From a virus (taxonomy: Duplodnaviria; Heunggongvirae; Uroviricota; Caudoviricetes), in IMG/VR virus record IMGVR_UViG_3300028898_000252, positions 93,946 to 157,945 of that record: a stretch of DNA of 64,000 bases. One strand, 5' to 3'. The notes below the pieces were generated by a model that worked only from the letters and a program-made list of their open reading frames with translations, made no database searches and was not told the origin of the DNA. Shown piece by piece: positions 3,275 to 59,139 of the stretch; position 1 is the stretch's first letter, and every line of letters begins with the position of its first letter. The translations under genes were made by a program, and so were the position numbers.

Positions 3275-6200
3275 ATGGCACTTTATAGACATCAAGAAAA
3301 TGGTAAAATTTTTATCATTTTAGAAAGCGAACTTCAAAAAAATAAAAAGGAACCATATTCTGGTGATGACTTTATTGCGCCACTAAAAAAAGAAATTTCT
3401 GAGCAGGTTGGATTAAACAGTCTAAATGCTAAAGATAAATTTCCTATTCAGAAAACATATGTTGAGGGAAATGTTGGTGGCGGTGAGAATTCAATATCAA
3501 CAGTTTCAGAAGAACAAAATACTTTTATTAAAGCTATAGCATCAGAAGAAGCAAAACTGAATTTTGCTACGACTTCGGACAGCGGGCAACTGACAGTTAA
3601 AATAAAAAGAGGAAAATACAGTCCAGCACCAGAAGCTATGGATTGGCAAGATGCTCTTAACGATATTGAGATAAATAAAGAAGAATCAAAAATAAATGTA
3701 TCTGTTGAAAAACTATTGAGTGAAAACAATGTTTACAGCCCCTCAAATCCAATAATAAAAGAAAACGACCCAGATGAAAATAAAATTGTTTTAGGAACAA
3801 TAGCGTATAAAACACTTGGAGTTCATGGTCCAAGAAAATTTCCTTCGACTGTAGAATCAGATCCTAAAATAAATCAACTTACAATTGAAGATATGAAATC
3901 TGTTGGATTGAAAATTCTTTTGGCAAGTTCTGGAGAATCTAACTCTGCAATAACAAATTCAGCAGGAAATAGTATAGCTGCTATCGATGCTGCAAACCTA
4001 GTTCCTAGCGCGACAGAATTAGGTAGCAAAATTACATTTGGTTTGACAAAAGCTTCAAAAATTCTTGAAGATATAAAACCTGGATTTAAAGCAACTGATA
4101 ACGGAGATTCTGTAATAGACAATTCTTATTCGATTACCTCTTTTGGGAGCCCAAACAATCCTTTTAAACCTTTTACTGGTACAGGCTCACCTTTATCTTT
4201 AGCAAAAACACTAGCAACGTTAACAACAATATCTTTTTTGCTTAAAAAGATCGCAATATCATTAAACCTAACAGGAAGAACTCAAGGCGATCACCTAGCA
4301 AATGGAAGTTCAAGAGACCGCCAAAAATTATTTGGAAGTTCAACAGCTAATGCTGGTTCTGATTTGTTACAAAACATATTAGATCCATTTGAATTACCTC
4401 AAATTACAAATGACTTCTTTTTATCAATAGATGCTGGATTTAAACAATTCTTTGGACTAGGTGATTCCCTTATTAGTTCGATAAGAGCTTCTGAAGACAT
4501 TACAAGTATGAAAAACTTCGGATATTATTCAATTTTTATTCGAAAATTAAATGCTGGTATACAAGAATTGATTTTAGGTGGATTTGGTTCGTTGTTACAA
4601 AATGTGAATCTTGGACAAGGATCAGAAATAAGAGAAACCCTTTCGCCAGAAAACTTAATGGAAAAACTTAAGTCAAATTTCGTGCTTAAATTTATTAAGT
4701 TTTTAGCCTTGATTGGAGATAAAGTTTTGATTGTAAATGAATTACAACAACAATCTCCTGTTCCTGGTTTAGAAACCACAATATCCGCAATAGATGGTAT
4801 ACAAGAAAAAATTTCAAATGATGATCAAAGAGTAAATCCTGGTATTTTTGTTGTTAAACATCGTTTAGATCAAACCAATGGTGGAACTGCGTATGCTAAT
4901 AGCAATTTACAGTCTATGCTTTTGATGCCGCAATCTATTATAGAGGCAGATAAACTTTTAAACGGAGAAGAGAATCCAGCGGCAAAAGCTACAAGAAAAC
5001 TTTCAGAATCAAATGTTGTTCATACGAACGATTACATAAATGGAAGAATTCCAAAAGCTGAAGTTAAAAAAATGGAAGATTATCTTGAAAGAGATTATAT
5101 GCCATTTTATTTTCATGATTTAAGAACAAATGAAATTATTTCATTTCATGCTTTTTTAGATTCTGCCTCTGACAGTATTCAAGCAGAATATAATGAAGTT
5201 GAAGGATATGGAAGAATTGGTGTTGTTCCAATTTATAAAAATACAAAAAGAAGTATAAGTTTTTCTTTTAAAGTATTAGCAGTAAATGATTCCGATCACG
5301 ATCAAATGTGGTATAAATTAAATCGTCTTGCTGCATGTTTGCATCCTCAATATTCCGAAGGACGTATTTTATCCCACCAAGGAAATAAATTTATTCAACC
5401 ATTTTCTCAAGTTTTTGCGGCAACACCTCTTATAAGATTAAGACTTGGCGATTTATGGAAATCGAATTATTCTAAGCTTGCTGTTGCTAGACTGTTTGGT
5501 TTGTCTGGACAAATTCAAGGCAGAGAAGAAACATTTAAACTAGCAACCGAAAGACAAATATCTATTAGACAGCCAACTGATAATATTCGTGCCCAACAAC
5601 AAAGACGAAACAATGAAGCTGCAACTTTACGCAGACCATTACAGCCTGGAGATTCTGTGGAGATTCGACCAACTTCTAATAAAAACCGATGGCCTGTTGT
5701 TGTTCCAAATGATTCTGTTTCGACAAATGCAAGACAACTCGGGCAACAAATTGGACAATATAGAATTGTTCCTGGTGCTTTTTTATACATTCCTTCTGGT
5801 TACGTTCGAGGAGAAATTGTTGAGTTCCACCCTTCCACAAGAGGAACAGGAAATAACTATCTCGTAAGAATAACAGACACAAGACCCGACGGACAACAGC
5901 TTGGTTTTAGAACAATTTCTGGAAATCGTCGTGGTCAAAGTCCAACATCGCTATTTAACATGGTTAACGACGATCCAACAGGGGATGTTGTGTGTGTCAA
6001 TCCAGACAGGTTAACTAGAATTCTGCCTCCAAGAGAAAATGTGGAACCAGCAGATCCAATAACCCAAAGAGAAACTATTAACACAACCGTTGCAGATTTT
6101 TTTAAATGCGATGGAGAGAACGCAAATCCAATTATGAAAGCCTTTTGTACAACAGAAGGTAAAGGACTTGCTTGTGTTATAAAATCAATGAATTTTGAAA

Positions 6201-6463
6201 ACATTATGGATGCTCCTTGGATAACAGATAAATTTGATGGAAGAGTTCCTTCTCTTGTTACCGTTAATATGGAAATAACGCCAATTTATGATATAAATCC
6301 AGGATTAGATTATAAAGGTGCAATGACTGCACCAATATGGCCATCTGGTCAAATTGTTACAAATTTAATGGGAAAGAATCACTCTTCAGATGAAGGCCAT
6401 AAAAACTTTCACCAAAGCAGAGTTGTGTATAACTTTCCATCTGTAAGAGGTCCTAGAACATGA
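3275..6463 (+). CDS. Baseplate / tail tube initiator-like protein with long N-terminal extension
   Basis: PFYFHDLRTNEIISFHAFLDS...EGYGRIGVVPIYKNTKRSISFSFKV resembles gp48/gp54-like tube-initiator domains; lies just upstream of the LysM-like and hub genes. Confidence 0.6.
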   Translation: MALYRHQENGKIFIILESELQKNKKEPYSGDDFIAPLKKEISEQVGLNSLNAKDKFPIQKTYVEGNVGGGENSISTVSEEQNTFIKAIASEEAKLNFATTSDSGQLTVKIKRGKYSPAPEAMDWQDALNDIEINKEESKINVSVEKLLSENNVYSPSNPIIKENDPDENKIVLGTIAYKTLGVHGPRKFPSTVESDPKINQLTIEDMKSVGLKILLASSGESNSAITNSAGNSIAAIDAANLVPSATELGSKITFGLTKASKILEDIKPGFKATDNGDSVIDNSYSITSFGSPNNPFKPFTGTGSPLSLAKTLATLTTISFLLKKIAISLNLTGRTQGDHLANGSSRDRQKLFGSSTANAGSDLLQNILDPFELPQITNDFFLSIDAGFKQFFGLGDSLISSIRASEDITSMKNFGYYSIFIRKLNAGIQELILGGFGSLLQNVNLGQGSEIRETLSPENLMEKLKSNFVLKFIKFLALIGDKVLIVNELQQQSPVPGLETTISAIDGIQEKISNDDQRVNPGIFVVKHRLDQTNGGTAYANSNLQSMLLMPQSIIEADKLLNGEENPAAKATRKLSESNVVHTNDYINGRIPKAEVKKMEDYLERDYMPFYFHDLRTNEIISFHAFLDSASDSIQAEYNEVEGYGRIGVVPIYKNTKRSISFSFKVLAVNDSDHDQMWYKLNRLAACLHPQYSEGRILSHQGNKFIQPFSQVFAATPLIRLRLGDLWKSNYSKLAVARLFGLSGQIQGREETFKLATERQISIRQPTDNIRAQQQRRNNEAATLRRPLQPGDSVEIRPTSNKNRWPVVVPNDSVSTNARQLGQQIGQYRIVPGAFLYIPSGYVRGEIVEFHPSTRGTGNNYLVRITDTRPDGQQLGFRTISGNRRGQSPTSLFNMVNDDPTGDVVCVNPDRLTRILPPRENVEPADPITQRETINTTVADFFKCDGENANPIMKAFCTTEGKGLACVIKSMNFENIMDAPWITDKFDGRVPSLVTVNMEITPIYDINPGLDYKGAMTAPIWPSGQIVTNLMGKNHSSDEGHKNFHQSRVVYNFPSVRGPRT

Positions 6464-6741
6464 GATATGACAAATCACCACTTTTAAATTTCGGTACACA
6501 ATATGGAACATCCGAATTTATTCCCAAAATTAGAAAAGCGATTGAAACAGGACAAATACGCTATGAAGAACATATTTTAACTGGACGAGAGCGTCTTGAT
6601 ACTTTAGCTGCTCAATATTATGGGGATTCTTTTAAATATGATATTTTAGCCGCCGCTTCAAACATTGGTAACTGTTTACAGGTTCCTCCTGGTACTGTTG
6701 TTATTATTCCCAATTTAGAAGATATTGATCTCATTACTTAA
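6460..6741 (+). CDS. LysM-like baseplate wedge / tail X-like protein
   Basis: GRERLDTLAAQYYGDS...ILAAASNI...VPPGTVVIIP. Confidence 0.75.
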   Translation: MRYDKSPLLNFGTQYGTSEFIPKIRKAIETGQIRYEEHILTGRERLDTLAAQYYGDSFKYDILAAASNIGNCLQVPPGTVVIIPNLEDIDLIT

Positions 6742-6748
6742 CTGTGAG

Positions 6749-9700
6749 ATGGTAAAAAAATTAGATAAAATATATTATTACAAAGCTGTTGAGAAACTTG
6801 CGCCATATTTTGGCGTTTTAACAACAAAGGATTTGTCTTCGGCAATTGCCCTCGAACAGCTACAGGGGTTGTCAAATAATATAAGAAATATTGATAGTTC
6901 AATTCAACCATCTCAAGCCGAAGCAAAAATTGTAGACCTGATTATTAATACTAGAGAAGGTGCGCTTCCAGTAATTGATGAAGTTAGAAACCGCACAGCC
7001 ACAGGTGCAACTGGTCAAATTATTGACGGAGTTCGCAGAACTCCACCAACAGAATACCCAGAATCTTCAAGAAATGATTTACATACGGCTCTAGATTATT
7101 ATACGAGAGGCTCAAACACTATAAATCAAGCGGATTTACAATCGAAAATTAGTAATTTTGTAAAACTTCACCATAGTTCAAAACTTAATGAAAATCAATT
7201 TTCTACTGCCGATATTGGAGAAATGTTAAACAAACAAGACGACGATAATATAGTTAAAAAACTTTCAGCGATTGAAATTTTCAGTCCAAATATTTCTCCG
7301 TCGGCAAAAGATACAGAAGGACTTTCTATTTTATTTAATGGTATACCAAATATAGAGCTTAGCAGACTTATTCCATATCTCGATGTTCAGTTTATGTTTG
7401 GAAAGCCCACAACTGATTACGATGGAAACTTATCGGCACCTTCTATTTTTAAATTTTTAGAAGGTGCTGTAAAAGTAAGAGACAACTCTACTTTAGCACT
7501 TTTAGCCAAAGGAAATCAAGTCGAAGGAAGAATTGAGGGTGCGCGCAACGATACTGGAAATCTTGCTATTGCTGGAATGGAGCTTTTCACTTCTCCGCAA
7601 ACTATGGTTAACGCCGACACTCCTAATCCAAAATATAACAGATTAAACAGTTCTACAAATGAATATAATTTAAGATCAACATCTGTTATTGATAAATTTC
7701 GCCCATTTTTAAGTTTCAAACAACTTTCAATTGACGTTGCCCCATCTGTTGGTTTATTTTCATTTAAAACAGCAAAAATGGAATTTATTTTGCATGATAG
7801 AAGTAGACTGCATGAAATTGCAGATTTGGTTAAACCTGATTTATATGGAACAACAGAATTAATGGTTGAATATGGATGGGCACATCCTGATGGAGCCGAA
7901 TTGAACAATTCTTATGCTGATTTATTTAATTCCACAAGAATAAAAGAAAAATATGGAATAAAAAATGTCCAATTTACTTTTGATGAAGTAGGTCAAGTTA
8001 ATATAACTCTCGAACTTTTTACAAAAGGTGGAACAGATATTTATACCTCAAATATTGCAACAGCTTCGGAAGCGACGCGGCAATCAATTGTAAGAATTCA
8101 AGAACTTAGTGATATAATTTCAAGATTTAGACAAGCAATTCCAAATCAATCTAGTGGGAATACAGCCTCAAGAGAAATTAGAGGAATTCAAGCATTAGAT
8201 ACTGCATCAGATATTCAATCAAACATTAGACTATCCCCAGAAATTATTAATCAAATAAGAGAATTAAAACAAAGTTTAGGCCCTATTTCTTCGCGAAATA
8301 GAGACGTTTCTGCACTTTTAGATTCTTTAACGTCTATGTTTCAAACAATAAATCAAAATAGAAATACTAGAGGGAATAATAGACAAGCGGGACAAACTTC
8401 TGCTCTCGAACAATTATCAAATTCAATTCAGTCGGATATAAGGCAACAGTTTTCTATTCTTAAAGATGGATACGACCCATTCTATCCAGTTGGATTTGAA
8501 TTGCCTGATAGAAGAATTCAGGGAGCTCCTGTAAGAAGACCCTCAGAAACTTTCAGAAGGGTATTAAGAAGCGGCGATGGCGCTAATCAAAGACAACAGA
8601 CTGTTCCTGGGCAAAATATTTCTAATAACCTATTAAATGAATTTAACAATGAACAAATATCGCTTGGTAAATTATTAATGACATTTATTGGACAACCACT
8701 TGCGGCAACAGGAAAGTACGACGAAATACAATTTGTTTTTTATCCTTTTAACAATTATTCTGGATACGCTAGGTTTTTGCACACTGGGCAATTTATGATT
8801 GATTTAAGGTTCATGATTGAGCAATACTTTCGATTTAGAATGGAATCTGTTTCTCGCGCGGCCAACGTGAACTTGAATGACTTTATGCAATTTATTCAAT
8901 CAACAATTATAGATGATCCCGCCGCACCTGTTTACGGTGTTGATGATTTTTATGAAAAAACAGTTGATAGAAATACAAACCAACCTCAAACAACTGCAAG
9001 ATTCGACGCTGTTAGACTTCAAACTGAAATAAGCGAAAGGTTGCGAAACATAACACCAGATGGAACCTTTAAACAACCAACAATAGAACTTTATATTGAA
9101 AGTATTCCTCGAAAAAATTTCGTCCCAAATTCACTAGAAGAAACAATAGACAATTCTAAAACAATTCTAAAAATTCATGTCTATGACAAACAAGCATCAC
9201 AGTATGAAGGTCTTGGAAGTATTTTAGAAATTGCAAGAGACAATACCCTTTCTGCTTTTTCAACAATAACTGCTGATTCAACAAACCAAAATTCTAGAAT
9301 TGGTCAAGCCCAAAAACAACAAATAGAACAAATAATAGGTAGTGCTGTAAGAAATGGTTTAATTGAAAGAATAGAACCATCAAGGAGAGAGCTTAATCCT
9401 GATGGTAGATATTCCTATTATAAATTTGTTGGAAGTCAAGGAAAACTCAAAGAATTTATAATGAAGACAATGCCATACATTATATATGGATGTGCGGGAA
9501 CAACAATTCAAACAGCAACCCTTACATCCCAAAATGACCCTGCTTTATCTTCTGTTAACATGATACGAAGCACAAATGCCAATCCTCAAAGAGCAAACGG
9601 CGAACAACCTGGTGGATTACCTATACAAATTATTCCTGCGGAATTGAATGTCTCTTGTTTTGGAAATACGTTAATCAATTTCGCGCAAAGAGTTTTTATA

Positions 9701-46426: not shown

Positions 46427-49081
46427 ATGAATATAACTGATACTTTGTTAAATAAAACACATCAAGATGTCGTTTTCGGCGAAAAAGGTCAAAAGGAATT
46501 GCTTAAAGGAGCAGAGATCCTTTATAAAGCTGTTAAATCTACAATGGGACCATCTGGTCACAATGTTATTATCGACAATGGAATATCTCCACCTTTTATT
46601 ACAAAGGATGGAGTCACCGTAGCTAAAAACATTAATTTAAAAGATGATTTGCAAAACATTGGAGCTGAACTTGTTAAAGAAGTCGCATTAAAAACCAATG
46701 AACTGGCTGGAGATGGTCCTCAACCCCTTTATGCTAAGGTTTTGACACCCAGCGGTTGGAAACCAATGGGAGAATTAAAAATTGGAGATGAAATCTGTGG
46801 AACGAACAACACTATTCAAAAAGTTGTTGGCATTTACCCAAAAGGAAAAAAAGAAATTTATCAAATTAAATTTTCTGATGGCCGAACAGTTGAATGTTGC
46901 GAAGATCATCTTTGGACAATAACTGATTACGCAAACAATAAAAAAACAATTCCAACAAAAATAATGAAAGACGATTTCTATAAACATAATCGTCATAAAT
47001 ACTATGTTCAAACTACTCAAGTCGAATTTATCAATAAAGAAAAACTTAAAATTGATCCATACACTTTAGGAGTATTACTTGGAGATGGTAGTTTATCAGA
47101 AAAATCAGATGTTGAAATTTCTGTGGGTCTAAAAGAAGATTACATCTTAGATCAGTTGGTTTTGCCAGAAAACTGCAAAATACGAAAACGTTATTATACA
47201 GAAAATAAACATTTCATAAAAGCAACTATTACTGGTAGTCAAAGAAAAAATCGGCCAGTTAAAAGTCATAAATCTATAATAAAACTAATTTTAAAAGAAT
47301 TAAATCTACTTGGCAAAAATAGTCATTCTAAATTCATTCCAAAAGAATATTTATATTCCTCAAAAGAAAATAGGCAAAAATTATTAAATGGTTTAATTGA
47401 TACAGATGGGTCGATTAATAAAAAAGGTTTGTTTGAATTTAGCACAGTAAGTGAACAATTATGCAAAGATTTCGTTGAGCTTTGTCGAGGGCTTGGAAAA
47501 ACAGTATATTGTTATAAACTAAACAGAAAAGAAAACAGTGCTTATGGGAAAAGTCCAATTTATAGAGTTAGCGAATTGAAAGGATATAAAGGTGGAATAA
47601 AAATTACAGATATTCGAAAAACAAATCAATATACTGAAATGCAGTGTATAAAGGTAAGCAATCCAGATAATTTGTATATTACAGATGATTATGTCGTTAC
47701 ACACAACACTACAACTGCCACTGTATTAGCATATAATCTTTTTAATAACGGTTATAAACTTTCTTCTGCGGGAAGAGATTCTATTGCACTTAAAAAAGGA
47801 ATCGATTGGGCAACAAATGTTGTCATTAGTCGTTTAAAGGAAATCGCAACTGAAGTTAGAAATGATGAAGATATCATCTCTGTTGGAACAATATCGGCAA
47901 ATGGTGATAGAGAAATCGGAAAATTACTTTGTGAAGCAATAAGAAAAGTTGGAGAAGATGGAATTATTACGGTCGAGAAAGCTAAAAGTGTTAAAACAAC
48001 ACTTAGTGTTATTGATGGTCTTAGTTTAGAAGTTGGGTATGTTTCGCCTTTTTTTGTTACCAATCAAGAAAAACTAACATCGGAACTTGAAAAACCATAT
48101 GTTCTTGTAACGAATAAGAAAATTTCTACAAAAGAACAACTTATTCCAGTTATGAGTATTGCTAATGAAAAATCTAGACCTTTATTGATTATAGCCGATG
48201 AAATCGAACAAGAGCCACTCCATATGTTGCTCACAAATAAAATGCACGGTGCAGTTATTTCTTGTGCTGTTAAAGCTCCTTCTTATGGAGATAACAGAAT
48301 TGACATTCTTCATGATATTTGTTTGGTAACAGGCGCGACTTGCTTTGATGCCGCACAATCAATTCAGCTTGAAAAATTAAAAGAAGAACATTTAGGATCT
48401 TGTGAAAAAATAACCATTTCAAAAACTCAAACAACTTTGTTTGGTCTTGGAGACACAGTTAAAAAAGAACAAGTTGACGAAAGAATAAAAGAACTTAAAC
48501 AAACTTTACTATTACCAGTTGATGGGTTAGACGACTTAAAGCGGAACAATATTAAAAAACGTTTAGCCAAACTTGCAGGTGGTATTGCCATCATCCATGT
48601 TGGCGGTTCAACAGAAGTAGAAATAATTGAGAAAAAAGACAGAGTAGATGATGCTTTGAATGCTACACAGGCAGCAGTTCAAGAAGGAATATTACCAGGA
48701 GGAGGAACAGCACTTTTCTATTGCGCGGAATTTCTAAATTCAGAGATTCAAAAAAATGAAACTAAATTAAATGAAGACGAAATTTTTGGTGCAAAAATTG
48801 TATATGAAACTTGCAAAACTCCATTGAAAGTAATCGTCGAGAATACAGGAAAGAACCCAGAAGTTATTATGAATGAATTAGCAAGAGCAACAAACTCTAT
48901 TAATTTCGGTTATAATGCCTTTAGTCACAAATATGAAAACCTAGTTGATAGTGGAGTAATTGATCCAGTTAAAGTTACTAGATATGCACTTGAATTTGCA
49001 AGTTCGGTTGTTGGATTAATGCTAACATGCAACTGTGTTATTTTAACACCAGAAGAAGAAAGAAAAAAGGAAGAAGAATAA
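46427..49081 (+). CDS. groEL: Chaperonin GroEL precursor containing an intein
   Basis: TMGPSG; ITKDGVTVAK; AGDG|TTTATVL; ISANGD; GGSTEVE...KDRVDDALNATQAAVQEGILPGGG; GVIDP.KV; 554 aa after splicing. Confidence 0.95.
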   Translation: MNITDTLLNKTHQDVVFGEKGQKELLKGAEILYKAVKSTMGPSGHNVIIDNGISPPFITKDGVTVAKNINLKDDLQNIGAELVKEVALKTNELAGDGPQPLYAKVLTPSGWKPMGELKIGDEICGTNNTIQKVVGIYPKGKKEIYQIKFSDGRTVECCEDHLWTITDYANNKKTIPTKIMKDDFYKHNRHKYYVQTTQVEFINKEKLKIDPYTLGVLLGDGSLSEKSDVEISVGLKEDYILDQLVLPENCKIRKRYYTENKHFIKATITGSQRKNRPVKSHKSIIKLILKELNLLGKNSHSKFIPKEYLYSSKENRQKLLNGLIDTDGSINKKGLFEFSTVSEQLCKDFVELCRGLGKTVYCYKLNRKENSAYGKSPIYRVSELKGYKGGIKITDIRKTNQYTEMQCIKVSNPDNLYITDDYVVTHNTTTATVLAYNLFNNGYKLSSAGRDSIALKKGIDWATNVVISRLKEIATEVRNDEDIISVGTISANGDREIGKLLCEAIRKVGEDGIITVEKAKSVKTTLSVIDGLSLEVGYVSPFFVTNQEKLTSELEKPYVLVTNKKISTKEQLIPVMSIANEKSRPLLIIADEIEQEPLHMLLTNKMHGAVISCAVKAPSYGDNRIDILHDICLVTGATCFDAAQSIQLEKLKEEHLGSCEKITISKTQTTLFGLGDTVKKEQVDERIKELKQTLLLPVDGLDDLKRNNIKKRLAKLAGGIAIIHVGGSTEVEIIEKKDRVDDALNATQAAVQEGILPGGGTALFYCAEFLNSEIQKNETKLNEDEIFGAKIVYETCKTPLKVIVENTGKNPEVIMNELARATNSINFGYNAFSHKYENLVDSGVIDPVKVTRYALEFASSVVGLMLTCNCVILTPEEERKKEEE
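46718..47707 (+). mobile_element. Class-3-type intein with LAGLIDADG endonuclease, 330 aa
   Basis: Starts PQPLYAKVLTP; block B DHLW; LGVLLGDG and LNGLIDTDG; block F MQCIKV; ends VVTHN|T. Confidence 0.9.
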
Positions 49082-49982: not shown

Positions 49983-50387
49983 ATGAGTTATTCGTATAGT
50001 AAAGCTGGCCCAGGGTTTGTTCCAGAATTTCAAATTTCTGGTTTACCTTTTGTTACATCAAGCAATTCAGCTGCTTCAATTTCTTTTCCCTATCTAACCC
50101 AATGGATTCTGGTAAGGTCTAGCGGTTCGGCTATCACAATGGCATTTACGCCATCTGGATTTTCTACTGGTAACAGTTTTATCCTTCCTGCAAATACAAC
50201 TCTTGGACCTTTAAGATTAAGAGTTACAGATCTTCATTTTAGTGGTTCTGGAATTCAAGTTATGTGCGGATTAACACAAATTGATATAAACAATTGCTAT
50301 GTTTTGGTATCAACAGGCGCTTTAACTTCGCTAACTGGTGGTTTGGCTGTTACAGACACCAATTATTTTGCCTATAGAGGTATTTGA
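49983..50387 (+). CDS. Small beta-rich virion protein, paralog 1 of 3
   Basis: VPEFQISGLPFVTSS...FPYLTQWI...TNYFAYRGI. Confidence 0.75.
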   Translation: MSYSYSKAGPGFVPEFQISGLPFVTSSNSAASISFPYLTQWILVRSSGSAITMAFTPSGFSTGNSFILPANTTLGPLRLRVTDLHFSGSGIQVMCGLTQIDINNCYVLVSTGALTSLTGGLAVTDTNYFAYRGI

Positions 50388-50393
50388 TTAAAA

Positions 50394-50786
50394 ATGAGTG
50401 TATATAAAACTGGTCAATTTAATGTTCCGAATTATCAACTATCTGGCTTACCATATGTTACAAGTTCTGGAATCAACACTATTGAATTTCCATACTTAAC
50501 ACAGTGGATACTTATAAGAACAGCAACGACAACTAGAATTGCTTTTACACAAGGTGCAATAACAACAAACAATGAAATAACTGGTTTAAGTTCTGCTTTT
50601 GTTGAAATGGTGCCACTCCCAGTTCGAATAAAAAAACTTTATATTACGGCTGGTTCTGCAATTGTTATGGCTGGGTTAACTACTATCGAAAATGGTTTTG
50701 ATCTAATCAATACCGCATCATATGCAAGTCTTTCTAGTAGTACAGATTTAGATTCAACAAATATATTCGCCTATCGAGGTATTTAA
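50394..50786 (+). CDS. Small beta-rich virion protein, paralog 2 of 3
   Basis: VPNYQLSGLPYVTSS...FPYLTQWI...TNIFAYRGI. Confidence 0.75.
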   Translation: MSVYKTGQFNVPNYQLSGLPYVTSSGINTIEFPYLTQWILIRTATTTRIAFTQGAITTNNEITGLSSAFVEMVPLPVRIKKLYITAGSAIVMAGLTTIENGFDLINTASYASLSSSTDLDSTNIFAYRGI

Positions 50787-50790
50787 CAAC

Positions 50791-51219
50791 ATGAGTATTT
50801 ATAACGTTTCTGCGGGCTATGGATTTACTCCAAATTATCAACTGTCTGGTTTACCATATGTTACTGGCGTAGGTGTCGTTTCTACAAGATATAAAATAGA
50901 ACTTCCATATGTTTCCCAATGGATTTGTTTTAGATTTACACAAGCGGCAAGAACAGCTTTTATTTCTTTTGACTCATCTGGTTCTCCTACTAATAATATT
51001 ATGAAAATTGAATCAAATTCTTCAAATATGTTTTTTGGTCCATATTATCTGAGAATAAAAGATCTTTATATCGAAAATAGTAATGGCGTTCATGTTATTG
51101 CTGGTCTAACGTCTATTCCAAGAAATGGCGTGCCAAGTTTAGTATCCCCTGTAAACAGTTCAATTACAGGAAGTTTATCTGTTGTCGATACAAATTATTT
51201 TATTTATCCAGGTATTTAA
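50791..51219 (+). CDS. Small beta-rich virion protein, paralog 3 of 3
   Basis: TPNYQLSGLPYVTG...LPYVSQWI...TNYFIYPGI. Confidence 0.75.
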   Translation: MSIYNVSAGYGFTPNYQLSGLPYVTGVGVVSTRYKIELPYVSQWICFRFTQAARTAFISFDSSGSPTNNIMKIESNSSNMFFGPYYLRIKDLYIENSNGVHVIAGLTSIPRNGVPSLVSPVNSSITGSLSVVDTNYFIYPGI

Positions 51220-53312
51220 TCTTTTAAAAGATCTGCTATCGACAAACCAAACATTTTTAACCCAGAAACTGATTGTTTTGTGTTTGGTACATTTTTCTGT
51301 TCTTGATTAAGAATTTCTTTCGATAAAGTTTCTTTATGCAAATTCACATTATTAACATCTGATGATTTAGGTTTTATTGCATTTAAAAATATATCTTGCC
51401 ACGACAAACCATTTGAGTTTTGTTTGTTTTTGCTAAGACCAGTAGGTTCATAAATTAATAAAGCAAAAGATAAGGACATGATCGAATCATCAAATTTTCC
51501 TCTTAGCGCTTGGGTTTTTTTGCCATTCCAAACAAATGTATCTAATTCTCTTGCAAATCTTAAAGAATTAATTTTTAATAGCTTGTTTCTTAAAACGTTT
51601 TCTAATTGAGACAGTAACCTTTCTCTAGATTTTGGAGATGTTGTATGTCCTGGATAAATATTTTCTTTTTCTTCATCTGACATAAGATGAATATTTTCCA
51701 TTATTTTTTCATCATAATAAAGATTTGGGTATTTAATATCTCTTAGTTTAATGGCTGCGGCAATTCCAATTGAATTAAGTTCACAAACAATTTTACCAGT
51801 ATTATACTTATATCCATACTCGGCAACAAGTTCTGCAAACTTGTCTGGTGCCATTTTTCCATAAAATTCTGCAACCTGTTCATCCAAAGTTGTATCAATA
51901 ATATGGCAACAAGAATGATCTTCGCCATCTCCCCTTGCTATATCACAAGATAAAATATATTTATGATTTTCTTCTGGTTGAGCCCATATCCAAAAATCAT
52001 TGTTTTTTGCCTCTTCAGAAATTGGTGAAGTTATATTAGATTTAATCCACTCTATAGTATCTGCATCGAAAAATGTATTTCCAGAACCTTCAAATCCGCA
52101 GCAATATTCTTTATCAATCTTTTTCGCATCCATTGATTTGGTTTCATTTTCAAACCATTTTTCATCTCTATCTGGGTGTACTTGCCACGGTAATTTAACT
52201 GCGTGAAACCCATTAACTCCAACATCTTCACAATGTAAACCAATTCTATCTTTTCTCATTTCTTCAGTATTGGCATTTTTATAAATTTCGTAAAATTCGT
52301 TTTTGCCATTCGGAGAAGAAAATAAAATCGCATCGCCACCTGTTGTAATCGTTGGTCGGGCAGCTTCCCAAATATCTGAAAATTTTTCGATGTGGGCACA
52401 ATTAGAAGAAATGAATCCATTAGTAAAATATTCATTTCCTAGTTCAACATTCAATAAATCATATAATTCAATATCGGAAATAATTTCCTTAATACTTAAA
52501 ACTTCCCCAACATTTAATAATGTATCACCGACTTCCAGAAAATTTGCTTCGACAAATTCGTTTTCTGTAATTTTTACTTTATGTTCATAAGAACATTTCA
52601 ATTCAGCTTTTTCTGTTTTTATTAAAAGGTAAGATTTTTTTTCAGTTTTTTTAATACCAGTAAAATTACTCCATCCACTTGGAGTTAGAACTTTATAATT
52701 TTCATGCTCCATTCTTTGAAATTCTTTCCAAAGATCTTCTATCTTTTTCTCAAAAATAAGATTCAACTCTTCTTTTTTTAAATAAATAACAGAATCTCCA
52801 GACACACATTCATCAATGATTAACAAAGAACAAGCAATACCGCGCACGCTTTCTGGCGTTGTTGGTATCGCCTCAATTTTAGAACCATTTGTAAATTCGA
52901 TATATTTAACAGATTCTTTTTCTGTTTCTGTCAAACCCAACATTGTTTTAATCCACGGAGGAACATCCTTAAACGCGATTCGAATTTTTTGAATCATGTT
53001 TTTGGCAGTTTCAAGTCTTGTGGCCATTAGTCTAATGTCTTTATCCATATGAAACATCGCATACCAAAGACAATAGGCCGACGTAATTGTACTTAAACCA
53101 AGCTGCCTAGATTTAACAACAATATTATATTTAAATTCTAAAAAATCATTTATACAGTCTTCTTGGAATGGATATAATTTTAAAGGAATTCTTCCTTTAA
53201 CTGGGTGTTGGATGTATATATAATTTTTTATAAAATAAATTGGATCTTCTTTGCAGCGCTGTAGTTCTTGAATCTTTATCGAGGCTTGCGCTTTCTGTGT
53301 ATCATTTGCCAT
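51216..53312 (-). CDS. terL: Terminase large subunit with intein
   Basis: LYPFQ; KSRQLGLS; LLIIDE|CAH; LFSSPNG; nuclease SCDIARGDGED...CELN...DDSIMS. Confidence 0.93.
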   Translation of the reverse strand: MANDTQKAQASIKIQELQRCKEDPIYFIKNYIYIQHPVKGRIPLKLYPFQEDCINDFLEFKYNIVVKSRQLGLSTITSAYCLWYAMFHMDKDIRLMATRLETAKNMIQKIRIAFKDVPPWIKTMLGLTETEKESVKYIEFTNGSKIEAIPTTPESVRGIACSLLIIDECVSGDSVIYLKKEELNLIFEKKIEDLWKEFQRMEHENYKVLTPSGWSNFTGIKKTEKKSYLLIKTEKAELKCSYEHKVKITENEFVEANFLEVGDTLLNVGEVLSIKEIISDIELYDLLNVELGNEYFTNGFISSNCAHIEKFSDIWEAARPTITTGGDAILFSSPNGKNEFYEIYKNANTEEMRKDRIGLHCEDVGVNGFHAVKLPWQVHPDRDEKWFENETKSMDAKKIDKEYCCGFEGSGNTFFDADTIEWIKSNITSPISEEAKNNDFWIWAQPEENHKYILSCDIARGDGEDHSCCHIIDTTLDEQVAEFYGKMAPDKFAELVAEYGYKYNTGKIVCELNSIGIAAAIKLRDIKYPNLYYDEKIMENIHLMSDEEKENIYPGHTTSPKSRERLLSQLENVLRNKLLKINSLRFARELDTFVWNGKKTQALRGKFDDSIMSLSFALLIYEPTGLSKNKQNSNGLSWQDIFLNAIKPKSSDVNNVNLHKETLSKEILNQEQKNVPNTKQSVSGLKMFGLSIADLLKD
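52401..52808 (-). mobile_element. Mini-intein (136 aa, no endonuclease) in terL
   Basis: Starts CVSGDS; block B CSYEH; ends YFTNGFISSN|C; inserted directly after Walker B. Confidence 0.88.
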
Positions 53313-53326
53313 TACTTAATTCTCTA

Positions 53327-53956
53327 TTAAAGATAAAAATACTCTGAAAATTTTTCGGCGGACTTTGGGGTAGATGCTATAATAATTCTACCGTGTGGAT
53401 AGACTGTAAGTTTCGCCATTTCAAAATGCTCTTCAAAATTCTCAATAAAATCCGCTTCATCAAAAATAACTGTATCAAAATTAAAGCCGCGGAACGCATC
53501 AACTGCAAGTGCCAAAATTGTTATTGAAGATCCATTGCTTAGGTTCATTTTTCTAGTAGTTGAAACTTCAACTTTCGCTAAATTTTTAACATGCTCTGGC
53601 AACAGATCATACTGCCATTTAAGTTTTTCTAGAAAAAATTTCCCACTTGAAAAACTTGTTCCCATAAATCCTATTGTTTTTCCAGAGTTGAATAATATTT
53701 GATGGAGAGTAAAGGCAACAAGAAAATTAGTCTTGCCAACTTGCCTCATCCCTAAAAGATAATCTCCCTTTTGGTGCTTATTCAGACTTTTATCAAAAAA
53801 CTGTTGATAAAAATTGAAAATAAATGGAATTTTACCTTTAACTGGATGATGTATGTGCAGGCACTCTTTTGCAAAGAGCTCTAAGTCTTCCTCATATTGT
53901 TTAATTTTATCTTGAATTTCTTTTTTTTCTAGGTTTTTAATACATATAATAGACAT
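53327..53956 (-). CDS. Stand-alone terminase ATPase-domain paralog
   Basis: HPVKGKIP (TerL HPVKGRIP); MRQVGKT; RGFNFDTVIFDEA; IIASTP; no nuclease domain. Confidence 0.85.
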   Translation of the reverse strand: MSIICIKNLEKKEIQDKIKQYEEDLELFAKECLHIHHPVKGKIPFIFNFYQQFFDKSLNKHQKGDYLLGMRQVGKTNFLVAFTLHQILFNSGKTIGFMGTSFSSGKFFLEKLKWQYDLLPEHVKNLAKVEVSTTRKMNLSNGSSITILALAVDAFRGFNFDTVIFDEADFIENFEEHFEMAKLTVYPHGRIIIASTPKSAEKFSEYFYL

Positions 53957-53984
53957 CGTAAAACTAACTATAGAATATTATTAG

Positions 53985-54428
53985 TTATTTTACACGAATT
54001 AATGCAAAAACTTTATAAACTGATGTCTTTTGAACACTGTAAACTTGATAAGATAGTGGATCAGACGTTTCTTGAATAGAACTATCTAATATTTCTAAAC
54101 TTATTTTCTTTTTTGCGGGTTCGGAATATTCATTCTTAGATAAAACTTCAGATTTTTCAGCAGTTTCTGAAAGTTTTTCATAATCTTCTTCTATTCTTTT
54201 CATTCTATTTTGAATGTCAGCTAATGCATCTTGTCGCCATTTTCTTTGAAGTTCAAGTTTTACAGATTGATGACCAGCAGAAACAAAAGACTGGTGAACA
54301 ACTTTTAATAGTCCATCATCCATTGCTTCAAATTTAATCCAGTGATTTTTTCTCTCGTCTTGACCTGAATTTTTTGCAAGCGCATTCGCTAATCTTTGAT
54401 ATGTTAGATAATTTTTAACTTGTGCCAT
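53985..54428 (-). CDS. Hypothetical protein
   Basis: 147 aa ORF. Confidence 0.7.
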   Translation of the reverse strand: MAQVKNYLTYQRLANALAKNSGQDERKNHWIKFEAMDDGLLKVVHQSFVSAGHQSVKLELQRKWRQDALADIQNRMKRIEEDYEKLSETAEKSEVLSKNEYSEPAKKKISLEILDSSIQETSDPLSYQVYSVQKTSVYKVFALIRVK

Positions 54429-54452
54429 ATTTTTAATTATTGAAAATTAAAT

Positions 54453-54554
54453 TTAAATCTGTTTTAACAAATTGGAACTTGATTGAATTTTATCGCCCAA
54501 TCCGTCAATTATTTTTATTTCTAGCAATTTACAAATTTGTGACTCGGGAATTTC
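54453..54554 (-). pseudogene. Remnant resembling a cytidylyltransferase-like C-terminus
   Basis: Start-less frame EIPESQICKLLEIKIIDGLGDKIQSSSNLLKQI-stop, hand-translated. Confidence 0.5.
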
Positions 54555-54601
54555 CGAACTGAAAAAACTTTGAACCTTTTAATTTTCTTTGATAATCAGA
54601 A

Positions 54602-54856
54602 TTATACAAAATCAAAAGATATTTTGTGCATTTGTTTTCTTTTGTTAATGTATTTTTTATATATTTCTGAGTTTTTATCAACTTCTATCTTTGCTTTAAC
54701 AAATGTGGTTTCACACAAAAAACAAGCTTTTGACTCTTTGAAAGAAAGAATGTCATCAAAAGTTTTCAAAGTAAACTCACAAACTGGGCAAAAGACAGGA
54801 ATCACTTCGTGATTTTTTGAAACAAATACATAAAATTGTTCTTGATCAGAATTCAT
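54602..54856 (-). CDS. Small zinc-binding protein
   Basis: CPVC...CFLC. Confidence 0.7.
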   Translation of the reverse strand: MNSDQEQFYVFVSKNHEVIPVFCPVCEFTLKTFDDILSFKESKACFLCETTFVKAKIEVDKNSEIYKKYINKRKQMHKISFDFV

Positions 54857-54859
54857 ATA

Positions 54860-57800
54860 TTAATGATATGAAATTTTCGATTGTTTTGTTTCTTCATTTT
54901 GCGAAATTTCAATTATTTGATCCATATATTCTTTTAGAGATTGAATATGAGTTATTACAAAAACTGCTTTAAATTTTTCTTTAAGTTTAAAAAGCAATTT
55001 AACAACATTTCCCAGATTATTTTGGTCTAGAGCATCAAAGCCTTCGTCAATAATCAAAGAATCTAATTTTGGCAATGGAGTTAGTTCCATTAAAGCAGCT
55101 CTAATCGCCAAAGAAGAAATCATTTTTTCCATACCAGAAGCTAATTCAATTACCCTTGTAGATTTATCATCTTGCAAAAAGATATCAAGTGTGTTTACGC
55201 CAACTTCTGTCTGAAATTTAATTTTAAAGTCGGCAACGTCACTTAGATAATCATTTATAAGTTTGTTTATCACTGGAAGTTGTGAATTAAGAAGCATCGC
55301 AGGAATTCCATTTTTTGAAAATGCATCCAGAATAGATTCTAGAATTTTTGCACTTGTAACAAGCTCTTCTTTCAAAGTTATTGAAGATTCAATTGTATCA
55401 ATATTGTTCTCTAGTTTGCCAATTTCCACTGAAATAGAATTTAGCAACTGATATAATTTTTTTCTAGCGATGACTTTTTCTGTTTTTATTTCATCAATTC
55501 CAGATAAAACAAACAATTTCTCACATTTCTCTTTGTATTCTTTTTTCTTTTCAGACATTTCTAAAACATCTGTTTCCAACATTGGAATAATCCTATCTGT
55601 TTTAGCAGAAATTTGAATTTTAATTTCGGAAATTTTTTGTTTGAAACCTAGAATTTCCTTTTCTAGGAAATTTAATTTTTGATTTTCATCTTTTAAAAAA
55701 ATTGATAAGCTATTGAATAGGTCTATTTTAGAATTCGCTTCTTCTTCATTAAAATTTAATGAAATTATTTCATTTTCAAGGTTTTTAAGATCAATTTTTG
55801 CTTGGTGTGCATCTTTTATATAAACACAACTTGGATATGTATCTCCACAAGGAACAACATCAAGTTTTTTCACTATTTTTTTAGAAAGATCTAAATCTTT
55901 TTTTATTGCTATTAATTTAGTTTTAATTGATGTTATTTTTTGGTAGTCTTCTTCTAGAGAAGATAATTCTTTTGATATTAATTCAATATCTGTTTTCTTT
56001 TCCTCAAACTCTACAAGTTTTCTCTCCAGATGTGCTTCTTTTGTTTTAAGCAAAGTTTCGAGATTTTCAAAATTTTTCTTTTCCATTTCTAATTCATTTT
56101 CTTTTTTAGCAAGCAAATTAGAAACGGAAGTTAAAGTCTGATGAAGAAATGTATATTCTTTTACATCTGGTAATTCTTCTATTTCTTTTTCTAAAGAAAA
56201 AATATCAATTTCACATTTCTCTTTTTCGGCTAAGAATTCTTCTAAACGTATTTTATTTTGAGATACTTCATCTTCTAATTTTACTTTATCGTAATTTTTA
56301 AGTTCTCCTTTTTTAAGAATATTATATTCTTCGTTTACGGAAGAATATAAATGTTTGAATATGTCTAAGTCAAGAAATCTATTAAGTAATTCTTTTCTGG
56401 TTGTGGCTCCTGAATTAATGAATGAATTGATTTGACCTTGAGCAGAAAGAGAAGTAAAAAGAAAATCATCTGGTGTTCCTATAATATTTCTTAACACTTT
56501 TTCTGTGTCTGTCCTAGAGATTGAATTTTCGTTTTTTAACTCGTATTGCGAACCATTTCTGTCTAATTTATAAAGTTTCAAAGAAGTCAAAGCCTTATCT
56601 TCTTCTTCAAGTTTTTTATTCTTTGTTTTTTGAATTTGCTTTTCTATTTTACGTTCAAGCAAATAACGCTGCCCAGAAACATTAAACAACATTCTCATCG
56701 AAGCATCTTTTTCTTTATTGTTTACGACAAAAGCAGACTTCACAGGAGCTCTATCTGTGACATTATATAATGTTAGAGCTATAGAACCTATTAATGAAGA
56801 TTTACCTATTCTATTGCGCCCGTGAATGCCTACAAGACCATTTAATTTACTAAAATTTACTTTGTTTTCTTTTCCATAAGAAAGAATATTATCAAATTCA
56901 TATGTTTCAAGTTTGATAATAGCATCGCGAACTTGTTCAGAGATACCAGAAAGTTTTTCTAAGTTTTCTTCAATTATTTTTTTTGCCTTTTCCGTATCGA
57001 TAGATTTATAATTCTCCTTGTTTCTTTCGATAAATTTTGAATACAATTCTTTAATTTTTTCTTTATTGGTTTTTAACTCTTCTTTTGTTATAGATTCACC
57101 TTGAATATCAACCGAATCAACCGAGAGAAGAATCGAATCATCAATATCCACAGATTTTGCACCAAGTTTAGTTGTGCCAAATGTTTTTAGTGAAAGTTTG
57201 TCTGTGTCAGTTATTCTTGTATTGCTCTTTATTCGCAATTTCCAACCATGTGAAATTTTATATTTTTGAACCTGGTCTAATATCAAAGATTTTGTTTTTT
57301 CAACATTTTCCTCGAAAGAAACTGTTAGAAACAAAAATGGATTTGCAACCTTTACAAATGTTTTCTTAAAATTTGTTGAATCATTTATTTCCCAAACCGT
57401 AAATCCTTTTTCAATACTTTCGCCAAAATCTAACTGCGATAGACTACCTGGGTAGTGAATCTTTCCGCTCTTATCCAGATCTTGTCGTTTATGGATGTCT
57501 CCAAGGAACGCATAATCGACAGATTTAAAGAAATCTGTTTCAATCTCTGCTTCGAGGGCTACAATACCATTTTCGTAAACGCATCCAGCGACAGAGCCGT
57601 GAAACACAGCAATGTTCACCAATTTATCATTTATTTTAGCAGACAAAGGCTTCCAGCCATCTTGATCGAATAAAGAATAAAACAAAAAATTTATGTTGTT
57701 TTTTATAAAGTTTTCTGATTTCTTATGAAGATAAAGATTATTTCGATTTAAAGCTTTGATAATCGGCGAAATTGCATCTTCTCTTTGTTCGTTTTTTAAA

Positions 57801-58051
57801 TTGCCATCGTGGTTTCCCAAAATTACGTGAGTTTCGGCTATGTTTGCAAGTCCGTTGAAGAAATCGACTAATAAAGAAATAGATTCTGGTGTTATATTCT
57901 CTGTTTTTGTGTGGAAAATGTCTCCCGCAACCACAACACAATCGACTTCTTGATCTACTAATTTTCTTAGAAAATTGTCAACTATTATTTTATTTTCAAC
58001 TATTCTCTCTTTTCCTTGTATGTGTATATCGGCCAAATGTGCTATTTTCAT
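54860..58051 (-). CDS. Fused Mre11/SbcD nuclease - Rad50/SbcC ATPase (gp47+gp46-like)
   Basis: ADIH, AGDIFH, GNHD, GDIH; then GRNRIGKSS, ASGME signature, IIDEGFDALD, VITH; ATG at 58051. Confidence 0.9.
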   Translation of the reverse strand: MKIAHLADIHIQGKERIVENKIIVDNFLRKLVDQEVDCVVVAGDIFHTKTENITPESISLLVDFFNGLANIAETHVILGNHDGNLKNEQREDAISPIIKALNRNNLYLHKKSENFIKNNINFLFYSLFDQDGWKPLSAKINDKLVNIAVFHGSVAGCVYENGIVALEAEIETDFFKSVDYAFLGDIHKRQDLDKSGKIHYPGSLSQLDFGESIEKGFTVWEINDSTNFKKTFVKVANPFLFLTVSFEENVEKTKSLILDQVQKYKISHGWKLRIKSNTRITDTDKLSLKTFGTTKLGAKSVDIDDSILLSVDSVDIQGESITKEELKTNKEKIKELYSKFIERNKENYKSIDTEKAKKIIEENLEKLSGISEQVRDAIIKLETYEFDNILSYGKENKVNFSKLNGLVGIHGRNRIGKSSLIGSIALTLYNVTDRAPVKSAFVVNNKEKDASMRMLFNVSGQRYLLERKIEKQIQKTKNKKLEEEDKALTSLKLYKLDRNGSQYELKNENSISRTDTEKVLRNIIGTPDDFLFTSLSAQGQINSFINSGATTRKELLNRFLDLDIFKHLYSSVNEEYNILKKGELKNYDKVKLEDEVSQNKIRLEEFLAEKEKCEIDIFSLEKEIEELPDVKEYTFLHQTLTSVSNLLAKKENELEMEKKNFENLETLLKTKEAHLERKLVEFEEKKTDIELISKELSSLEEDYQKITSIKTKLIAIKKDLDLSKKIVKKLDVVPCGDTYPSCVYIKDAHQAKIDLKNLENEIISLNFNEEEANSKIDLFNSLSIFLKDENQKLNFLEKEILGFKQKISEIKIQISAKTDRIIPMLETDVLEMSEKKKEYKEKCEKLFVLSGIDEIKTEKVIARKKLYQLLNSISVEIGKLENNIDTIESSITLKEELVTSAKILESILDAFSKNGIPAMLLNSQLPVINKLINDYLSDVADFKIKFQTEVGVNTLDIFLQDDKSTRVIELASGMEKMISSLAIRAALMELTPLPKLDSLIIDEGFDALDQNNLGNVVKLLFKLKEKFKAVFVITHIQSLKEYMDQIIEISQNEETKQSKISYH

Positions 58052-59139
58052 ATTAGTTTTTCTAGAATTCTTTCTTTTTTTGTTTTCGGATGCCAGACCC
58101 ACTCTTCTACAAAATCTATCTTATTTTTCAAATATCCAAATTCTTGAAGTTCGGCAAAATCTTTTGCTGTTTGGTGAGTGATGTTAGATACTATAATCTT
58201 TGTGCCAAAATCGCGCAATACACTTAAGTTTTGTGCTATAGTTTCTCGTTTTTTAACTTCATTTTTATCTAATGAAATACGAATAATATCTGGTTTAAAT
58301 TTAAATAGCCACTCGAATAGTTTTGATGTTTTTTCAAAACTTGAGCCTAAGATTGGAATTGTGTTTTTATATGGACTACATACATAGTCAAATGGACCTT
58401 CAACTAAAGTTATCTCTTTGAACGAAGAATCAATAAATCCGACATTAAAAATAATTTCTTTTGCGATTGAAGAGTTTACATATTTTGATCTTCCCACAAT
58501 TTCGCTATAAAGCCGTGCTGTGTAAAAATCAAATTCAAGATTTTCATTTACCGAAGGAAATATAATTCTGTTTTCTAAATAAAATTTTTCTTTCTTATCT
58601 GAAAAACTATAACAGATCGAAAGATTATTGTCCCATACTTGTTGTTCGGTAAGTTTTCTATCTTCAAAAAGATATTTTTTTGCTTTTCTATAAAGATGGT
58701 GATACTTTTTTTGTTCTGGTAGTTTTAAAAGCAAAGAAATGTTTTTAGGCATAACAAAAACATTCTCTTCTTTTACCGAAGATTTTCCTAAAATAAAAGA
58801 TTCAATCTTGTCAACAAAAGAAGATCCAGAAAATGAACTAAAATCTATTTTTTTGGTTTGAAACTTTTCGACATATTCTCCAAGAAAAGATTTTTTATAT
58901 TTGTAAAGCAACCAATACAAAGAACGACTTTTGTATCCGCATACCCAGCAATGCAAAGCGAAATCTGTTGTTCTTATAACTAATTTTTTCTTATCGTAAG
59001 AAAAACCTTTTTTTTCTCTACAAATAGGACATATGACACTAATATTCAAACCCGCATTTGATACTTGGTATTCTCCAAAACAAGACTCAATAAATTCGAA
59101 TATCTCAGGATTTGGTGGCATGACTAACATCAATAGCAC
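58048..59139 (-). CDS. DNA primase (Zn finger + Toprim)
   Basis: CPIC...HCWVCG; RIIFP; LVEGPFD; ISLD. Confidence 0.8.
   Translation of the reverse strand: MLLMLVMPPNPEIFEFIESCFGEYQVSNAGLNISVICPICREKKGFSYDKKKLVIRTTDFALHCWVCGYKSRSLYWLLYKYKKSFLGEYVEKFQTKKIDFSSFSGSSFVDKIESFILGKSSVKEENVFVMPKNISLLLKLPEQKKYHHLYRKAKKYLFEDRKLTEQQVWDNNLSICYSFSDKKEKFYLENRIIFPSVNENLEFDFYTARLYSEIVGRSKYVNSSIAKEIIFNVGFIDSSFKEITLVEGPFDYVCSPYKNTIPILGSSFEKTSKLFEWLFKFKPDIIRISLDKNEVKKRETIAQNLSVLRDFGTKIIVSNITHQTAKDFAELQEFGYLKNKIDFVEEWVWHPKTKKERILEKLI

Follow-up and report, generated by a model that had tools for sequence, protein, structure and literature searches.

Short terminase-like genes adjoining terL have been noted before in large cultured phages. 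In phiM12, the GenBank gene order is gp16 (terS), gp17.2 (annotated as "terminase DNA packaging enzyme large subunit"), and gp17, and the product of gp17.2 (YP_009143010, 196 aa) consists of an ATPase core of about 200 aa only, encoded on the same strand as terL and directly upstream of it. Counterparts of gp17.2 occur in phiM7, phiM19, and phiN3 and in three metagenomic T4-like contigs (L015, L016, and L017), one of which carries two tandem ATPase-only paralogs of 215 and 172 aa (L017, positions 3795-8368). In Pectobacterium phage CBB, one of the Rak2-like jumbo myoviruses, terL is directly preceded by a short ORF with a terminase domain; Buttimer et al. (2017, PMC5259590) described this gene, CBB_274, as a truncated large terminase beside CBB_275, considered the arrangement unusual, and linked it to phiM12 and phiN3. 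T4 also encodes a stand-alone terminase-ATPase-like protein, vs.8 (NP_049732, 219 aa), for which Evans et al. [quoted passage not shown] No functional study of any ATPase-only, terL-adjacent paralog was found in the literature searched. In T4 gp17, the N-terminal ATPase domain (2O0H, 2O0J, and 3CPE) is accompanied by N-subdomain II, or lid, by a portal-binding region, and by a nuclease; the lid/transmission subdomain contacts the portal.

The locus considered here comes from an uncultured, jumbo-type wastewater phage, represented by a virus record of 172 kb in IMG/VR that is rated about 50% complete. The window, by which we mean the whole stretch of 64,000 nucleotides that was analysed, has about 31% G+C and encodes 0 tRNAs. 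Several studies of wastewater, activated sludge, and bioreactors yielded metagenomes with near-identical DNA. A blastn search of positions 50000-56000 against cultured phages gave no match, and neither did a search of viral contigs for loci related to the paralog. Three genes on the minus strand (51216-54428) make up the segment of interest, namely, a 147-aa gene, a 209-aa ORF, and terL (Table 1). The 209-aa ORF runs from an ATG to a TAA, and its frame stays open for just seven codons beyond the ATG on the 5' side. The product resembles phiM12 gp17.2 in its length, its position on the same strand directly upstream of terL and downstream of a gene in the terS position, its GKT Walker A, its D-E Walker B, and its end just past the C-motif. 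The two proteins nevertheless belong to separate clades and share 22% identity by BLASTP (E 5e-10). The junctions differ as well, since the stop and start codons of adjacent genes overlap in phiM12 and L015-L017, an arrangement of translational coupling, whereas in the window 28 nt separate the 147-aa gene from the paralog and 14 nt separate the stop codon of the paralog from the terL ATG at 53312. CBB_274 shares the position immediately upstream of terL but is barely related to the window paralog (E 1e-3 over 69 aa), has degenerate motifs (R-G-A-G-L-S in the P-loop and Y-D-S at Walker B), and keeps part of the lid region, which the window paralog lacks. T4 vs.8, like the window paralog, stands alone and has intact Walker A and B motifs, and its profile match to the paralog is marginal and extends over about 50 residues. 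The arrangement is, therefore, already annotated or noted in cultured phages, and the window paralog is a new sequence family in that class.

Table 1. Positions and characteristics of the features of the terL region and its surroundings in the window.
Feature	Position	Strand	Characteristics
Cpn60/GroEL-type chaperonin gene	46427-49081	+	884 aa; LAGLIDADG homing-endonuclease/intein insert (Pfam LAGLIDADG_3, Hom_end)
Three tandem paralogous genes	49983-51219	+	134, 130, and 142 aa; converging on the terL end
Full-length TerL gene	51216-53312	-	698-aa precursor, 562 aa spliced; KSRQLGLST Walker A, Walker B, RNase H-like nuclease
Mini-intein in TerL, residues 169-304	52401-52808	-	136 aa; directly after Walker B D-E
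Stand-alone terminase ATPase-core gene	53327-53956	-	209 aa; corresponds to about residues 125-320 of T4 gp17, N-subdomain I
Coupling (C) motif A-S-T-P, residues 194-197	53366-53377	-	aligns with T4 T-T-T-P
Walker B and catalytic glutamate V-I-F-D-E, residues 163-167	53456-53470	-	aligns with T4 I-D-E
F-R-G, residues 155-157	53486-53494	-	Arg156 lies 11 residues ahead of the catalytic Glu
Classical Walker A/P-loop GMRQVGKT, residues 69-76	53729-53752	-	includes the P-loop Arg
Adenine-binding Q-motif F-Y-Q-Q, residues 49-52	53801-53812	-	aligns with T4 gp17 Y-Q
Inverted repeat TAACTA-N11-TAGTTA	53965-53987		in the 28-nt spacer before the paralog ATG
Conserved gene in the terS position of T4-like phages	53985-54428	-	147 aa; 84-95% identical across lineages
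Mre11-Rad50 fusion gene	54860-58102	-	1080 aa; Mre11/SbcD-type phosphoesterase and Rad50/SbcC-type SMC ATPase

It is clear from our results that the 209-aa ORF is a genuine stand-alone terminase ATPase-domain paralog and not a pseudogene. The protein matches Pfam PF03237 (Terminase_6N) at 38.4 bits (E 1.4e-9), above the curated cut-off of 22 bits, and the PHROG TerL families match it at E 1e-17. T4 gp17, its best match in both sequence and structure, aligns over residues ~125-320 of the PDB entries at 26-27% identity (E 3e-15 to 1e-14), in a register that brings together the Walker A (RQVGKT/RQLGKT), Walker B (FDE/IDE), and C-motif (STP/TTP) sequences as well as the Q-motif. The original prediction had recognised the gene as a terminase-ATPase paralog upstream of terL from the pair HPVKGKIP and HPVKGRIP, and this was borne out, as the former occurs in the paralog and the latter in TerL, and residues 16-169 of the window TerL align with the paralog at 26% identity (E 3e-16), with a second HSP that picks up beyond the 136-aa insert of TerL. 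The clade of the window TerL, which includes Microcystis phage Mel-JY01, the 484-kb uncultured phage LR756508, and many metagenomic TerLs, shares both the fold and the HPVKG-x-IP sequence with the paralog.

The original prediction also correctly placed the end of the protein just past the coupling motif and correctly described it as free of a nuclease, as the protein stops 12 residues after S-T-P and contains no RNase H-like nuclease domain. With terL beginning 14 nt downstream, there is no space for a hidden, frameshifted nuclease remnant. The lid, or N-subdomain II, is not present in the 209-aa protein either, as the alignment with T4 halts at about residue 320 and the structural comparison covers half of the target. 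An AlphaFold2 model built from a 38-row alignment has a pLDDT of 90.3 and a pTM of 0.87, and the top Foldseek match to this model is the T4 gp17 ATPase (2o0j; TMq 0.84, rmsd 2.3 A), with a TMt of just 0.50 against the 360-residue T4 ATPase domain. The combination of a TMq of 0.84 and a TMt of 0.50 indicates that the paralog corresponds to N-subdomain I alone. The TerLs of P74-26, HK97, D6E, and Sf6 likewise match the model structurally. Lacking both the lid and the nuclease, as well as the portal-binding region of gp17, the paralog alone could neither translocate nor cut DNA.

Within this reduced fold, the active site is complete. Q51 of the Q-motif is invariant across all aligned paralogs and TerLs, D166 and E167 are invariant in every aligned sequence, R71, Q72, G74, K75, and T76 of the P-loop are invariant in the six paralog lineages, and S195 and P197 of the C-motif are invariant as well. 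Taken together, Q51, R71, K75, T76, D166, E167, S195, and P197 are unchanged in six lineages that are otherwise 41-57% identical, and about half of the non-catalytic positions of the paralog have changed among these lineages. All the residues known to be needed to bind and hydrolyse ATP are thus retained, from which we infer that the protein probably hydrolyses ATP. The F-R-G sequence ahead of Walker B may be informative in another way. R156-G157 is kept in paralogs and TerLs, with a lysine in L011, and the distance of 11 residues from Arg156 to the catalytic glutamate equals what we take to be the spacing of the trans-acting arginine finger R139 of the P74-26 terminase. This arginine finger was placed between alpha2 and beta3, where T4 has an arginine too (PMC5727402). 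An equivalence of Arg156 with R139, which the spacing suggests, would hint that the paralog may function within an oligomeric interface.

The adjoining TerL differs from the paralog in its Walker A, in which the lysine has moved to the start of the P-loop. This shifted-lysine, or "deviant," type of Walker A was reportedly catalogued by Mitchell and Rao in 2004. The original prediction drew attention to the contrast between the classical sequence of the paralog (GMRQVGKT) and the form found in TerL (KSRQLGLST); the contrast itself is real, but it loses its significance because the form found in TerL is the norm throughout the clade. The shifted lysine, K67, is invariant in 22 TerLs of the clade, most of which have no neighbouring paralog, and among the sampled TerLs a K-S-R-Q-x-G-h-S/T P-loop is the rule in the half of the tree that holds the window TerL, Mel-JY01, and LR756508. 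A compensation of the deviant Walker A of TerL by the classical one of the paralog was consequently rejected, as the deviant P-loop also occurs in relatives that are free of the paralog.

TerL is also interrupted by a mini-intein, which matches the Cat intein 6dsl (E 2e-15), VidaL (E 5e-6), and also gp41-1, and which has the expected ends in Cys1 (C169), a C-terminal Asn (N304), and a +1 Cys (C305). The TerL of L011 (563 aa) represents the exact intein-free allele, reading IIDE-CAHIEKF, and, as L011 still has the paralog, a tie between the paralog and the TerL intein was discarded. A fusion of the paralog to TerL by frameshifting or readthrough was likewise rejected, as frame and spacing vary by lineage from an 11-nt overlap to an 18-nt gap. 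Other phages carry insertions at this same site of TerL, namely, an intein in Desulfovibrio phage 7757 and, in T4-like phages (phiR1-RT g166/g167/g168), split inteins together with homing endonucleases. The terL of L017 has two inteins, a split intein that interrupts Walker A and is accompanied by a free-standing endonuclease gene, and another located ahead of Walker B. Variable intein content is seen elsewhere in the neighbourhood too, where the orthologues of the chaperonin are 554 aa in L003 and 711 aa in L006. The three tandem genes between the chaperonin and terL are conserved in all relatives and have in common an S-G-L-P-[FY]-V-T motif and a C-terminal Y-R/P-G-I, with no Pfam match.

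On the other side of the paralog, the 147-aa protein occupies the position in which terS would be expected, but an assignment as terS could not be sustained, as there was no hhalign match to T4-type gp16 and the AlphaFold2 model was poor (pLDDT 46). Searches of the Pfam and PHROG families and of the Atlas returned no match for this protein. The spacer between the two genes contains the inverted repeat listed in Table 1, one arm of which is the ATAGTTA heptamer at 53965-53971 and the other arm of which overlaps the stop codon of the 147-aa gene. TAACTA-N11-TAGTTA is present as a single copy in the window, where 0.02 would be expected, and the arms, but not the loop, are conserved in all six lineages. 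The repeat may be a candidate for a local operator, a promoter element, or a weak RNA hairpin. The heptamer had been singled out in the original prediction as a site belonging to the paralog, and it is indeed present, on the minus strand. It is, however, not enriched, with 12 copies in the window against an expectation of 11.0 +/- 3.2, and an interpretation of ATAGTTA as a recurrent promoter was rejected for this reason; 3 of the 12 copies lie no more than 25 nt upstream of an ORF start. A scan for sigma-70 promoters and terminators gave no excess over shuffled sequences and no terminator among the three genes. A 687-nt contig from a wastewater metatranscriptome, about 95% identical, covers 53170-53853 across the junction of the paralog and terL, although contigs from RNA libraries can represent DNA carry-over, and this one is accordingly not taken as a sign of transcription.

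Homologues of the paralog were sought by a word-indexed protein search and an exhaustive HMMER search, and the short homologues form a small family at 91%, 86%, 54-57%, and 43-46% identity. In five other lineages (L004, L010, L003, L006-L009, and L011), this ORF again occupies the interval from the 147-aa gene to terL, with the member from L006-L009 present on 18 contigs, and the gene order common to these relatives is the Mre11-Rad50 fusion, one or two small genes, the 147-aa gene, the short ATPase, and TerL. The fusion itself is conserved in relatives (1063 aa), whereas Mre11 and Rad50 are encoded by separate genes in T4 and CBB. The ORF of the paralog is uninterrupted in six lineages, over a dS above 1, and its pairwise dN/dS is 0.20-0.51, with every bootstrap confidence interval below 1, including those for pairs with unsaturated dS (0.17, 0.42, and 0.70). 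By comparison, dN/dS falls within 0.026-0.105 in TerL and 0.035-0.125 in the 147-aa gene. The non-synonymous rate of the paralog is 4-10 times as high as in TerL and in the genes nearby. The N-domain of TerL is nearly constant across lineages in which the paralog drops to 41-57% identity. The paralog of L003 carries a 13-residue deletion that removes the strand just ahead of the C-motif. It is clear from these data that the paralog is maintained by purifying selection, and the suggestion that conservation across related phages be examined was answered in the affirmative for every close relative.

Outside of this group, the gene is missing. On a syntenic 278-kb contig (L031/L032) whose TerL is 45% identical, a six-frame HMM search found TerL to be the sole terminase-like ORF within 4 kb, and the same type of search found no paralog on the L030 contig, which carries the nearest outgroup TerL. 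The latter contig encodes a 712-aa ORF (31-2169) with a weak Cas12f/TnpB-like match, divergent beside terL. The loci of Mel-JY01, Desulfovibrio phage 7757, and LR756508 have no paralog either. Absence from a syntenic relative implies that the paralog is a lineage-specific gain or loss and an accessory outside of the core motor, and, viewed across the broader phage group, the gene can be dispensed with.

The origin of the paralog was approached with a maximum likelihood tree of 94 ATPase cores from which inteins were spliced out. Members of the paralog family group together with strong support, and the stem leading to them is long, at 1.23 substitutions per site. Their clade falls, with weak support, in the deviant-P-loop half of the tree and is not sister to its own TerL. 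A second stand-alone clade, composed of phiM12 gp17.2 and the short ORFs of L015, L016, and L017, is found inside the GKT-type TerLs of the T4 superfamily (support 86/95). In AU tests, neither a single origin for all stand-alone forms (p 0.143) nor a sister relationship between the paralog and the local TerL clade (p 0.285) was rejected. The presence of a classical GKT P-loop beside a TerL with a shifted lysine mildly favours a foreign origin for the paralog.

Of the roles that can be proposed, the most likely, and one that we put forward tentatively, is that of an ATPase that is accessory to the packaging module, is not essential, and works on TerL in trans. Given that the gene is on the same strand as terL, 14 nt away, with no intervening terminator, the two proteins are probably made together. 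The paralog, co-expressed with TerL from a shared unit, would join or cap TerL ATPase assemblies through its conserved active-site and Arg156 face and would thereby tune motor assembly or ATPase firing. The recurrence of the order terS, short ATPase, terL in L015, L016, L017, and phiM12 supports such an accessory role. On the other hand, the deletion in L003 of the strand leading into the C-motif would be surprising if the coupling motif matters to an ATPase of this kind. The original prediction had named a packaging-motor regulator and a hetero-oligomer subunit among its candidates, and such a role is possible. Catalytic sites are dead in other paralogs of this type, as in CBB_274, which suggests that ATPase-only paralogs in general may work through binding and not through hydrolysis.

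The features that mark the paralog as an accessory, however, namely, its fast evolution and lineage-restricted spread, fit a conflict-related role equally well. The paralog might then be a mimic of the terminase ATPase, serving as a decoy or sponge for Avs1-3 or Upx or as a counter to a factor of a satellite or competing phage, an explanation that we consider unlikely but credible. Non-synonymous change at 4-10 times the level of TerL and the neighbours, gain or loss by lineage, and the recurrence, possibly independent, of such paralogs in different phage groups would all be in keeping with conflict, and the position of the gene guarantees that its product is present alongside TerL. Avs2 and Avs3 touch the active site of the terminase ATPase and the bound ATP (PMC13601566), which could explain the conserved residues with no need for catalysis, and the paralog model is similar to the terminase chain in 8dgc, a complex with Avs3 (TMq 0.67). 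Isolated terminase ATPase domains, and vs.8, nevertheless activate EcAvs2 and Upx instead of blocking them (PMC13601566), so that an intact mimic would more probably harm the phage than protect it, and the decoy idea is weakened accordingly. It may also be that the gene is simply an evolutionary leftover that derives from a terL gene by partial duplication or by horizontal acquisition of a 5' fragment, is under relaxed constraint, has little or no function, and perhaps persists merely through its embedding in the terL transcription unit. A dN/dS several-fold above that of the neighbours, the loss of 13 aa near the C-terminus in L003, and the absence of the paralog from syntenic relatives are what such a fragment would predict, and terL is a hotspot for mobile elements (inteins, split inteins, and homing endonucleases) that could have supplied it. 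Against this stand an ORF that is intact in six lineages across a dS above 1 with all dN/dS confidence intervals below 1, catalytic residues that are invariant while about half of the remaining positions differ, and a confidently predicted, compact fold that argues for a selected protein; given the selection data, a pure relic is unlikely.

Other explanations would remove the paralog from the packaging motor or make it part of a different one. Recruitment of the ATPase outside of packaging, either to DNA end-processing or recombination with the Mre11-Rad50 fusion or to a helicase-like role, draws on the conserved cluster that the fusion forms with two small genes, the paralog, and terL and on the proximity of the fold to SF2 helicase and RecA-like cores, as chains of RadD, UvsW, and RecBCD are among the structural matches. 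Elsewhere, though, the short paralogs sit between terS and terL, upstream of a tail sheath gene and away from recombination genes, L031 has Mre11-Rad50 and terL without the paralog, and a lone RecA-like core that lacks a second domain does not make a helicase, all of which make this reading very improbable. The paralog could finally be one half of a second, split terminase, with the nuclease and lid part encoded elsewhere in the genome. Split TerLs are known in T4-like phages (phiR1-RT g166/g168 and PX29 17A/17B), and the record covers just about 50% of the genome. However, the record of 172 kb, about 50% complete, contains no second nuclease domain when searched for one corresponding to TerL residues 345-698 and Pfam Terminase_6C, the known split TerLs are halves of the sole terL with split-intein ends, and the paralog has neither intein ends nor a missing partner alongside; we regard this possibility as extremely remote. 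Returning to an accessory ATPase that acts on TerL, a more specific form can be envisaged, in which the paralog would be a catalytically live, trans-acting partner of the motor that forms mixed interfaces with TerL via Arg156 or would be an interceptor of a terminase-directed factor from the host or a satellite, although we consider either version rather unlikely. Were it to hold, the paralog would represent a third, fast-evolving terminase subunit, acquired convergently by several jumbo and T4-type lineages.

Copies of terL that are confined to the ATPase and sit next to the full-length gene occur in many unrelated large phages, including phiM12-like and Rak2-like phages, other members of the T4 superfamily, and the wastewater lineage described here. 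The present case adds a sequence family and comparative data to this class rather than a new principle. The family is, however, a useful specimen, as it combines a full catalytic set with the absence of the portal-docking and DNA-cutting parts and evolves many times faster than TerL. If such proteins prove to be regulators of the motor or players in terminase-centred immunity, they would constitute an added component for one of the best-studied viral machines.
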